Source: an uncultured archaeon
Lineage (GTDB): Archaea > Asgardarchaeota > Heimdallarchaeia > Heimdallarchaeales > Heimdallarchaeaceae
Assembly: GCA_964549075.1 (NCBI GenBank)
Contig: CAZJUB010000003.1
Span: forward strand, 24,283-88,282
Reading direction: 5' to 3'
DNA: 64,000 nucleotides
Part shown: one piece after another, positions 33,738 to 36,909 of the stretch
How the letters are laid out: each line of letters starts with the position of its first letter
Numbering within the stretch: position 1 is the first letter of the stretch
The notes under the pieces: generated by a model
Told to the model about the DNA's origin: nothing
Databases searched by the model: none
Seen by the model: the letters and a program-made list of their open reading frames with translations, nothing else
Position numbers and translations under genes: made by a program

Positions 33738-34274
33738 GTGAGTTCAGTGTCTACGAAAAACTATCTTACCAACAAAATTGTTCTAATAGGAGATGCACGA
33801 GTTGGAAAGACTTCTCTAGTTAGAAGATTTGTTACAAATATGTTCGATCCTTCCTACAAGATTACTTTAGGTACAACAATAATGAAGAAAGAGTTAGAAT
33901 ATCTGACAAATAACGTAATACTTGCCATATGGGATATAGGAGGGCAAGAAGTTTTTAGACAGATCAGAAGTAAATACTTCTTCGGAAGTAAAGGAGCGTT
34001 AGCTGTTTGTGATGCTTCTAACAAAGAAACCTATGATAATTTATCATCATGGGTAGAATCGTTCAGAAACGAAGTAGGAGATATGCCTATAATTTTTATA
34101 GCGAATAAATGTGATTTGAAAGATCAACAAGTAACAGAAGAAGATATGAGAAAACTGGTAAAAACCTATACAAAAACTGAATTCTTGTTCACATCTGCTA
34201 AAGATGGAACCAACGCAGAAAAAGCATTTGCAGACCTAACAAGACTGATGATAGAAGACGCTGATATAATTTAA
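33738..34274 (+). CDS. Rab-like small GTPase
   Basis: GDARVGKTS, TLG, WDIGGQ, NKCD and TSAK; no C-terminal Cys. Confidence 0.9.
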   Translation: MSSVSTKNYLTNKIVLIGDARVGKTSLVRRFVTNMFDPSYKITLGTTIMKKELEYLTNNVILAIWDIGGQEVFRQIRSKYFFGSKGALAVCDASNKETYDNLSSWVESFRNEVGDMPIIFIANKCDLKDQQVTEEDMRKLVKTYTKTEFLFTSAKDGTNAEKAFADLTRLMIEDADII

Positions 34275-34309: not shown

Positions 34310-34795
34310 TTATTCATTTTTCTTTTGTTCAATTTGTTTTCGTAAGAGATACAAGGAAAGAGTTATTTCTCCTAAACAACCTATCTCATTCAATTTATCA
34401 AAATAAACTGCTCTTCCTTTCTCTAACTCTTGTTTGGTGAGTCCTGGTTCTGAACCTCCAAAAATTAAAAGAATATTCTTACCAACTGCATAAGACTTAG
34501 TTATCTCTTTTTCATTGAAGACTTCTTTAGAGTAAGGTCTCTTAATAAAAAGATAGATTTCTTCAGGATTAACCAATTCAATAGCGTCATCAATCCCTTG
34601 AAGATAAAGAAGATTTGCGTTTTGTGAGTGAGCTAATTTCTGAGCTATTGGAACACCTGTAGTTGCTGCAGTTCCCGTAGCTTTAGATAGAATAATATCT
34701 CTTGCACCTAGATTCAAAGCTATTCTAACAAACTCTCTACAATGGTTAATGCTACTGAAATTATGTAATTGGACAATGATTTTTCCTGAATTCAT
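34310..34795 (-). CDS. DUF2122/COG4080-type archaeal SPOUT-like protein (often labelled RecB-family nuclease)
   Basis: LHNFSS, KATGTAATTGVP.AQKLA, DDAIEL and FGGSEPGLT. Confidence 0.7.
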   Translation of the reverse strand: MNSGKIIVQLHNFSSINHCREFVRIALNLGARDIILSKATGTAATTGVPIAQKLAHSQNANLLYLQGIDDAIELVNPEEIYLFIKRPYSKEVFNEKEITKSYAVGKNILLIFGGSEPGLTKQELEKGRAVYFDKLNEIGCLGEITLSLYLLRKQIEQKKNE

Positions 34796-34858
34796 TAAGT
34801 TACTTTAAAATGAGCTATTCAAAAATATAACTGTCAAAACTTGAACCAAGTAAAAATA

Positions 34859-34866
34859 TTTTTAAA
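34859..34866 (+). promoter_or_regulatory. Putative TATA box for tRNA-His
   Basis: TTTTTAAA about 30 nt upstream of the tRNA 5' end, preceded by an A-rich BRE-like stretch. Confidence 0.45.
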
Positions 34867-34894
34867 ACACACTAACAACAAGAAAGTAAGTTAA

Positions 34895-34968
34895 GCCCCG
34901 ATAGTTTAGCCGCAGAATTGCGGATTGTGGCTCCGTAGACGCAGGTTCAAATCTTGCTCGGGGCACCA
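34895..34968 (+). tRNA. tRNA-His (GTG), intronless, CCA encoded
   Basis: Acceptor stem GCCCCGA/TCGGGGC, anticodon arm GCGGA-TTGTGGC-TCCGT, T arm GCAGG-TTCAAAT-CTTGC and 3' ACCA. Confidence 0.9.
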
Positions 34969-36166: not shown

Positions 36167-36697
36167 TCAATCTCTTGCTTCAATGCTACTTAAGATTTGT
36201 TCTCCCATTGCAAGAAATGCATCTGCAACATTATCCCCAGTTTTAGCTGATGTTTCAATGAACCCGATACATCCAGATTCTTCTGCAAATTTCTTTCCTT
36301 CTTCAGTTGAAACATCTCGAAGATCTCCTAAATCATTTTTATTTCCTACAAGCATTAACATTATACGAGGACTTTCTGTTTGAGCTTCTTTAATCCATGT
36401 TTGAAGATTTTCAAATGATTGTCTTCTTGTGATATCATAGGTAACTAGTGCTCCCAGACTACCCTTGAAAAAGATTTGACGCATTGAAGCAAAACGGTCT
36501 TGACCAGCAATATCCCATAATTGCAAACATACTCTTGTGTCCTTTATCGTTTCAAAGCGCGAATACGGCTCCATACCAATAGTCATCAAATAACCTGCTT
36601 GGAATTTGTTGTGAATAAATCTTTGGACTAAACTAGTTTTACCAACAGCCCCATCTCCAAGCAATAAAATTTTGAAAGTATACTTGTAGCTAGTCAT
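36167..36697 (-). CDS. Rab-like small GTPase
   Basis: YKYTFKILLLGDGAVGKTS, TIG, LQLWDIAGQDRF, YDIT, GNKND and ETSAKTG; no C-terminal Cys. Confidence 0.93.
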   Translation of the reverse strand: MTSYKYTFKILLLGDGAVGKTSLVQRFIHNKFQAGYLMTIGMEPYSRFETIKDTRVCLQLWDIAGQDRFASMRQIFFKGSLGALVTYDITRRQSFENLQTWIKEAQTESPRIMLMLVGNKNDLGDLRDVSTEEGKKFAEESGCIGFIETSAKTGDNVADAFLAMGEQILSSIEARD

Positions 36698-36909
36698 ATT
36701 GCTTTCTAACAAACCACATAATTTTATTGCTTATAATTATTTTGATGTTTCCCGTCACATAAGAAGGTCAGATTTTGTTTAGAAAGTTGCTTTTGTCTTA
36801 TATTTACAAGCTTTTGAATTATTTTTCTCAGCAAACATGTGAAAATGAGCATTTTGTGCATAATAACGAAACCTTTTAACATTGTTGAATTTTTTTCTTT
36901 TTAGTTCAA

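Follow-up and report, generated by a model that had tools for sequence, protein, structure and literature searches.

An A73 tRNA-His gene without an encoded G-1 in Heimdallarchaeaceae and four further Asgard families, and its probable pairing with a G-1-independent long histidyl-tRNA synthetase

Introduction

The G at position -1 (G-1) of tRNA-His is among the most conserved of tRNA identity marks and is nearly universal. The exceptions named in the available part of a 2023 review of tRNA identity are a single clade of alpha-proteobacteria, a small number of protists, and the mitochondria of C. elegans (PMC9976931). A tRNA-His with A73, served by a histidyl-tRNA synthetase (HisRS) that does not depend on G-1, has been described in Caulobacter (PMC3064791) as well as in T. 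brucei and Acanthamoeba (PMC4338351). Both the T. brucei and the Acanthamoeba enzyme can rescue yeast that lacks thg1 (PMC4338351). In the HisRS of Thermus, Gly72' and Gly73' of an RGGR tetrapeptide form the G-1 pocket, and Arg115 and Arg122 hold the phosphate and base of G-1; in the Caulobacter enzyme, whose tRNA substrate is without G-1, both glycines are replaced by Asp-Asp (PMC4357726). C73 has been taken as the archaeal and bacterial state, with the change to A73 placed in early eukaryotic evolution, and C73 without an encoded G-1, where G-1 is added by a Thg1-like protein, is a known archaeal alternative (PMC3245924).

Within the portion of the 2023 review that was available, Asgard or Heimdall is not mentioned and no archaeal G-1-less case is named (PMC9976931). 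Searches with subscription journals outside their coverage found no literature linking Asgard archaea or Heimdallarchaeota with tRNA-His, Thg1, or HisRS in this manner, and no report of a G-1-less histidine pair in archaea, such systems being known from alpha-proteobacteria and some protists.

Here, the window is the whole stretch of 64,000 nucleotides of archaeal DNA that was analyzed. An earlier note, made from its letters alone, had pointed to a tRNA-His with A73 and no encoded G-1, had called this identity eukaryote-type, and had offered either eukaryote-style untemplated addition of G-1 or a G-1-independent HisRS as the explanation. The assembly to which the window belongs (G000) comprises 3.23 Mb in 217 contigs, with 32% G+C, and is 89.7% complete. 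Its HisRS is referred to below as P0001, the family of the window as f1, and other families by anonymous f-numbers. Relatives of P0001 with 55 to 83% identity are labeled Candidatus Heimdallarchaeaceae or Heimdallarchaeota at NCBI, which bears out the description of the host in the earlier note as an Asgard-like archaeon.

Results

The tRNA-His gene in the window

Using ARAGORN, a single tRNA was identified in the 64-kb window, a tRNA-His(GUG) on the plus strand at positions 34895 to 34968. The features of the locus are as follows:

34310 to 34795, minus strand: gene for a DUF2122/SPOUT-like protein of 161 amino acids, divergent from the tRNA-His gene and 99 nt away from it
34856 to 34867, plus strand: A/T-rich, TATA-like stretch about 30 nt 5' of G1, a possible promoter element picked out by reading the sequence
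34894, plus strand: position -1, an A, with no encoded G-1 (sequence read)
34895 to 34965, plus strand: tRNA-His(GUG) body, positions 1 to 73, 71 nt, intron-free (ARAGORN, Rfam RF00005)
34911, plus strand: C in the D-loop at the standard G18 position, peculiar to the window copy
34927 to 34929, plus strand: anticodon GTG (sequence read, ARAGORN)
34965, plus strand: discriminator N73, an A (sequence read), conserved in 51 genomes
34966 to 34968, plus strand: encoded CCA end (sequence read), as in 36 of 36 tRNA genes of the assembly

The body of the gene (34895 to 34965) matched Rfam RF00005 with 58.3 bits (gathering score, 29) over model positions 1 to 71, with an intact cloverleaf, and was the top match in G000 for both of the tRNA-His covariance models used (R1 and R2). 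Its acceptor helix, GCCCCGA/TCGGGGC, comprises 7 bp and starts with G1:C72, so that with A at 34894 and A73 at 34965 the central observation of the earlier note was confirmed. As encoded, the tRNA ends in an ordinary 7-bp acceptor helix and a 4-nt ACCA tail, whereas the canonical tRNA-His has an 8-bp helix that includes G-1:C73 and a 3-nt tail. Renumbering G34895 as G-1 and C34964 as C73 was rejected, as it gives an A at position 8 and a 6-bp stem and goes against the layout of 7 bp, N73, and CCA common to all 36 tRNAs of the genome. The D-loop measures 7 to 8 nt. G18 is a near-universal D-loop base, and across 26 aligned Asgard tRNA-His sequences (74% mean column identity over the tRNA body) a G was found in the 25 others and a C in the window copy; the posterior probability of the Rfam alignment drops at this position. 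The C at 34911 could be a genuine substitution or an error in the consensus of this metagenome-assembled genome (MAG).

The window gene is the sole tRNA-His among the 36 tRNAs identified by ARAGORN in the 217 contigs of G000, and model R2, in which 16 canonical sequences were included, returned one match at an E value of ≤1e-11, again the window gene. A second, canonical tRNA-His, which according to the earlier note would overturn its reading if the window copy were unexpressed, was thus found by neither method in this 89.7% complete assembly. A73 is carried by 22 of the 36 tRNAs and C73 by none, and T is the commonest base at position -1 (18 of 36) in this AT-rich genome. Many of the tRNA genes contain introns, which in several of them are at noncanonical positions. 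In G013, of the same genus, contigs C94 and C11 carry two extra partial copies of tRNA-His (model positions 5 to 66) at contig ends, which accompany one full copy and are perhaps repeat or assembly fragments.

Genes for Ras/Roc-family small GTPases are located on both sides of the tRNA, at 33738 to 34274 (plus strand) and 36167 to 36712 (minus strand), and a further one adjoins the HisRS gene on contig C44, as is typical for Asgard genomes. The arrangement of the DUF2122 gene and tRNA-His recurred in 19 locus entries (some genomes being entered twice), all from the family of the window. The DUF2122/SPOUT-like protein was considered as a candidate tRNA-His-specific factor; its gene did not turn up at the f7 loci, and the candidate was dropped. 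An archaeal RNase P RNA is present elsewhere in the genome (G000:C9:57225-57547; 157 bits), and ordinary 5' processing is therefore expected. The TATA-like stretch at 34856 to 34867, if used, would leave a short 5' leader for RNase P to remove.

tRNA-His genes across Asgard archaea

As BLAST with the 74-nt tRNA matched close relatives only, models R1 and R2 were used instead and searched against samples of the phylum; their top matches were often other tRNAs, namely those for Gly, Asp, Gln, and Glu. The tRNA-His genes of 102 genomes were read, a count that includes related genomes, which are not independent of one another. Families f9, f10, f13 to f19, f21, f23, f26, f27, and f32, together with many genomes in the sampled families, lie outside this survey, and G058 (f5), with C73 and an unresolved 5' part, was excluded from the counts. 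The genomes were distributed as follows:

A73: 51 genomes (f1, 19; f3, 4; f4, 2; f7, 11; f12, 15)
C73 with G at -1: 46 genomes in 11 families (f5, 6; f6, 2; f8, 1; f11, 2; f20, 5; f22, 1; f24, 6; f25, 3; f30, 1; f31, 18; f33, 1)
C73 without G at -1: 3 genomes, G158 (L230), G307 (L242), and G309 (L237), all Thg1 positive
Odd cases: 2 genomes, G034 (A73 with g at -1) and G025 (U73)

The tabulation of N-1 and N73 that the earlier note had proposed as a check showed that A73 without G-1 recurs in f1, f3, f4, f7, and f12. One f12 gene begins at a contig end with position -1 beyond it; the other 50 A73 genes have T (33 genes), A (15), or C (2) as this base and never G, giving A73 with a non-G at -1 in 19 genomes of f1, 4 of f3, 2 of f4, 11 of f7, and 14 of f12. 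Two single-contig genomes of f1 (G054 and G055) have the A73 type as their only tRNA-His, the second model match in them being a tRNA-Gly(CCC). The earlier note had allowed for a sequencing error at 34965, which is excluded because A73 was read in 51 related genomes. It had also asked whether A73 might be widespread in archaea outside Asgard, a question answered here only as far as two such genomes, both of which are canonical.

A further 49 Asgard genomes follow one of the two canonical patterns, G-1:C73 or C73 with Thg1, and the recovery of these patterns in other families indicates that the method detects what is known from archaea. The acceptor stem of the G158 tRNA-His is mismatched and begins with A1. 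Introns in the T-loop region were seen in canonical tRNA-His genes at loci L234 and L235 (f11), L233 (f30), and L239 (f33). The two odd cases belong to the order of the window and break its pattern. In G034 (contig C193; L169/L209), the tRNA-His with A73 and g at -1 is located about 165 nt from a HisRS gene, and in G025 (contig C30; L172/L208), the tRNA-His with U73 contains two introns and is 6 kb from a HisRS gene. Both genomes encode a third kind of HisRS, of 478 and 462 amino acids, respectively, with an insertion at the Gly-Gly loop. These cases may represent a swap for another linked pair or contamination.

A long HisRS accompanies A73

One HisRS gene was identified in G000, outside the window (G000:C44:17995-19485), encoding the 497-amino-acid P0001. 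The protein matches PF13393 (157.9 bits), PF03129 (48.5 bits), and TIGR00442 (321 bits; cutoff, 287), and by models of the catalytic and anticodon-binding domains it is a class IIa HisRS, with the HisRS fold. Its best solved relatives by sequence are the HisRS enzymes of Thermoplasma (245 bits) and T. cruzi (179 bits), the score against human HisRS being 124 bits, and the eukaryote-type identity and link to the origin of the eukaryotic His system proposed in the earlier note are weakened by the margin of Thermoplasma over human. Between motifs 2 and 3, P0001 is longer than Thermoplasma HisRS by about 65 residues (query residues 211 to 307 versus chain residues 206 to 237). In an AF2 model (pLDDT, 86.4), residues ~170 to 321 form a confident, all-helical insertion domain. 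A Foldseek search with this model was led by the Thermoplasma and T. cruzi enzymes; the best match was 1wu7 (TM, 0.74/0.85), and trypanosomatid HisRS came second by fold (TM, 0.71 to 0.86; identity, ~25%).

To delimit this enzyme type of about 500 amino acids, a long HisRS was defined as a match to P0001 at an E value of ≤1e-60 in a 400-genome sample of the phylum. Of the 77 genomes belonging to the five A73 families, 72 contained it, compared with none of 323 genomes of other families:

f1 (plus G000): 30 of 30
f3: 10 of 12
f4: 3 of 3
f7: 11 of 12
f12: 17 of 19
Other families: 0 of 323

The families with a long HisRS are exactly those with an A73 tRNA-His. A prediction drawn from f1, f3, and f4, that a long HisRS implies A73, held in f7 (11 of 11) and in f12, which belongs to a different class (15 of 15). 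In a tree, 31 long-type sequences formed one clade (SH-aLRT, 100), in which every family with more than one sequence was monophyletic and f1 grouped with f3 and f7 with f12; between the five families, the enzymes have diverged to 37 to 45% identity. As the long HisRS is a single clade, its co-occurrence with A73 reflects a single evolutionary event and is not statistically independent support.

The nearest HisRS sequences outside this clade are enzymes of 410 to 440 amino acids from Patescibacteria, Gemmatimonadota, Verrucomicrobiota, Chloroflexota, and Thermoplasmata. A g(-1)/C73 tRNA-His was present in all four of the genomes read with such a nearest short HisRS (a Thermoplasmata archaeon, an uncultured archaeon, a Patescibacteria bacterium, and a Gemmatimonadota bacterium); a Luteolibacter genome stands outside this count, its tRNA-His not being among the three loci inspected. 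Since these short relatives are canonical, the long-type stem is where the tRNA switched from one type to the other.

The two genes are close together in some of the families. In f12 (L251 to L265; G092 to G110), the tRNA-His gene, interrupted by as many as three introns (following position 7, within the D-loop, and within the anticodon loop), precedes the long HisRS gene by about 90 nt on the same strand at 15 of 15 loci, and in 7 of 11 f7 genomes both genes are on one contig, 0.3 to 9 kb apart. In two closed genomes of f1, they are separated by about 135 kb. An ancestral linked pair of tRNA and HisRS genes is plausible, and the pair may have been transferred between lineages.

Residues at the G-1 site of the long HisRS

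The tetrapeptide of the G-1 pocket was located by anchoring on the LRPE of motif 1 that follows it and by alignment to the KGGR of Thermoplasma HisRS. In place of RGGR, P0001 has R74-E75-E76-R77. None of the 31 long-type sequences keeps Gly-Gly (EE, ED, DD, KK, SN, and others are found), and one glycine is kept in two of them, both from f7. Inspection of HisRS motif 2, a further check named in the earlier note, revealed [FY]R[DN]ET.Q[RK]GRV[KR]E in all 31, where Thr occupies the site of Thermus Arg115 (Thr117 in P0001) and Lys or Arg that of Arg122. Gln119 is invariant across 39 aligned long-type sequences. Replacement of both the Gly-Gly pair and Arg115 is suggestive of G-1 independence of the long HisRS. 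The Gly-Gly criterion predicts G-1 dependence imperfectly. In the alignment, Gly-Gly is kept by the HisRS of T. cruzi, whose lineage includes the G-1-independent T. brucei enzyme, and the HisRS of f5 and f6, paired with a canonical tRNA-His, has one Gly only (GQ, AG, or SG). Thermoplasma HisRS has Glu in place of the motif-2 Arg. Of the two explanations given in the earlier note, a G-1-independent HisRS that reads the anticodon is favored, as A73 co-occurs with a distinct clade of long HisRS in which neither the Gly-Gly pocket nor the motif-2 Arg is retained.

A eukaryote-like HisRS in f5

Hodarchaeales have been suggested to be the nearest archaeal relative of eukaryotes. The solved enzyme that the HisRS of G070, from f5 (L203; G070:C5), matches best is human cytosolic HisRS, over the full length, with 240 bits versus 150 bits for Thermoplasma HisRS, and the close relatives of the G070 enzyme are labeled Hodarchaeales, Hodarchaeum mangrovi, or Heimdallarchaeota LC_3. 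Motif 2, common to all three of the f5 sequences aligned, reads GRYREFVQCDAD and is near the human GRYREFYQCDFD. The tRNA-His of f5 has an encoded G-1:C73 in six of six genomes read, and Thg1 was found in none of 22 f5 genomes. The eukaryote-like synthetase thus goes with a bacterial-style tRNA and the A73 tRNA goes with another synthetase, a distribution that weakens further the eukaryotic link drawn in the earlier note.

Thg1 and alternative explanations

The other explanation in the earlier note follows the eukaryotic scheme, in which RNase P would cut at +1, Thg1 or an analogue would add an untemplated G, and HisRS would be G-1 dependent. A73 without an encoded G-1 is indeed the pattern of eukaryotic cytosolic genes (PMC3245924), and Thg1 homologues do exist in the phylum, PF04446 being detected in 16 of 400 genomes and in a Methanosarcina control. 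In the A73 families, mostly represented by incomplete MAGs, the same HMM search found Thg1 neither in G000 nor in any of the 77 genomes, two of them single contig, leaving the addition of G-1 by Thg1 unsupported, and Thg1C (PF14413) was found in none of five genomes, among which were the single-contig G054 and G055. According to Table 1 of the same source, moreover, the base that archaeal-type Thg1 adds opposite A73 is U rather than G (PMC3245924). A G-1-dependent HisRS is also difficult to reconcile with a partner that has neither the Gly-Gly pocket nor an equivalent of Arg115 and that, as its bit scores against human and Thermoplasma HisRS indicate (124 versus 245), is not of the eukaryote-like type. 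Taken together, this explanation is unlikely. Searches with Thg1 HMMs are blind to any unrelated G-adding enzyme, and an addition of G-1 in these archaea by an enzyme unrelated to Thg1 is conceivable, though unlikely.

It is less likely still that the encoded base at -1 is retained, with RNase P cutting one nucleotide early and HisRS reading the extra 5' nucleotide and its phosphate. In 33 of the 50 genes, the base at -1 is a T that could pair with A73 to give an end resembling 8 bp, and the HisRS of A. pernix is described as accepting A-1 or C-1 (PMC9976931). Against this, no pairing with A73 is available in 17 of the 50 genes, including the A/A of the window, T is the commonest -1 base of all G000 tRNAs in any case, and the residues of the G-1 pocket are now bulky or charged. 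An artifact or nonfunctional copy, with a canonical tRNA-His absent from the incomplete MAG or an assembly error at 34965, is scarcely credible, since the 89.7% completeness, the 217 contigs, and the odd C at the G18 position are set against the same gene type in 51 genomes, an A73 type that is the only tRNA-His in two single-contig genomes, an intact cloverleaf of 58.3 bits, and a single HisRS gene in G000 that is of the long type.

Discussion

The reading that we prefer, with a probability of roughly 0.75, is that the window gene encodes a functional tRNA-His that would mature without G-1 and would be charged by a G-1-independent long HisRS. The features of the gene, their distribution, the joint occurrence of tRNA and HisRS types, and the lack of Thg1 hits are observed in the genomes; from this genomic evidence we infer that the mature 5' end is at +1, that the HisRS does not need G-1, and what parts the anticodon and the insertion domain play. 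Transcription would start from the A/T-rich promoter about 30 nt upstream, and RNase P would cleave at the normal +1 site, because A(-1) and A73 cannot lengthen the 7-bp acceptor helix; no G would be added later. The single HisRS of G000 (497 amino acids) would then charge the tRNA without G-1, its Gly-Gly pocket presumably filled by R74-E75-E76-R77 and its motif-2 Arg replaced by Thr117. Specificity would come mainly from the GUG anticodon, since G1:C72/A73 is not distinctive in G000, where A73 is common to 22 of 36 tRNAs and C73 is absent. The insertion domain of Thermus HisRS clamps tRNA nucleotides 72 to 76, and the enlarged insertion domain of P0001 may likewise help specificity at the acceptor end. 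The pair probably has a single origin, on the stem leading to the long HisRS clade, and would have persisted while five Asgard families diverged deeply, in two of which the genes are still linked.

The likeness of the window gene to eukaryotic tRNA-His is most simply taken as convergent. It is doubtful that a set of A73 and G-1-less tRNA was old in Heimdall-related Asgard archaea and that the eukaryotic A73 is its relic. If it were, a Hodarchaeales-like, G-1-dependent HisRS would have been brought together with an A73 tRNA-His in the eukaryotic stem, and Thg1 would have been taken on to place a nontemplated G-1 opposite A73, which would explain why eukaryotic Thg1 acts against a nonpairing base.

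A G-1-independent pair would add to the exceptions an archaeal group apparently living without G-1, five Asgard families that include Heimdallarchaeaceae, and would establish a new HisRS subtype as the partner of a G-1-less tRNA-His. Such a pair would be a naturally orthogonal tRNA-His/HisRS set that is directly testable. The survey also shows an origin of A73 among the archaeal relatives of eukaryotes, outside eukaryotes themselves, and that f5, whose HisRS relatives are labeled Hodarchaeales, keeps G-1:C73 and a eukaryote-like HisRS, which constrains scenarios for the origin of eukaryotic A73 and Thg1.

Comparison with known systems

The window gene differs from the canonical archaeal tRNA-His in having A73 for C73 and no G at -1, and a Thg1-like protein was not found in the searches described above. 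It resembles the eukaryotic cytosolic tRNA-His gene in A73, G1:C72, and the lack of an encoded G-1, and differs from that system in that CCA is encoded in the gene, the HisRS is not eukaryote-like, and Thg1 was not found.

With T. brucei and Acanthamoeba, it shares A73, a Watson-Crick +1:72 pair, and the absence of an encoded G-1 and of detected Thg1 (PMC4338351). Trypanosomatid HisRS keeps Gly-Gly, has a different motif-2 loop, and is without the extra helical insertion. As Thermoplasma HisRS is closer to P0001, common descent of the G-1-independent state with trypanosomatids appears unlikely.

The likeness to the Caulobacter pair extends to A73, the lack of an encoded G-1 and of detected Thg1, acidic residues in place of Gly-Gly and, by our reading, a probable reliance on the anticodon. 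The replacement is Asp-Asp in Caulobacter and Glu-Glu in P0001 (PMC4357726). [quoted passage not shown] P0001 also probably belongs to a HisRS clade other than that of Caulobacter, its best solved relative being the Thermoplasma enzyme and its insertion about 65 residues larger, and its host is archaeal rather than alpha-proteobacterial. On present evidence, the tRNA-His and long HisRS are best read as a G-1-independent pair that would work like those of Caulobacter and Trypanosoma and would be of separate origin.
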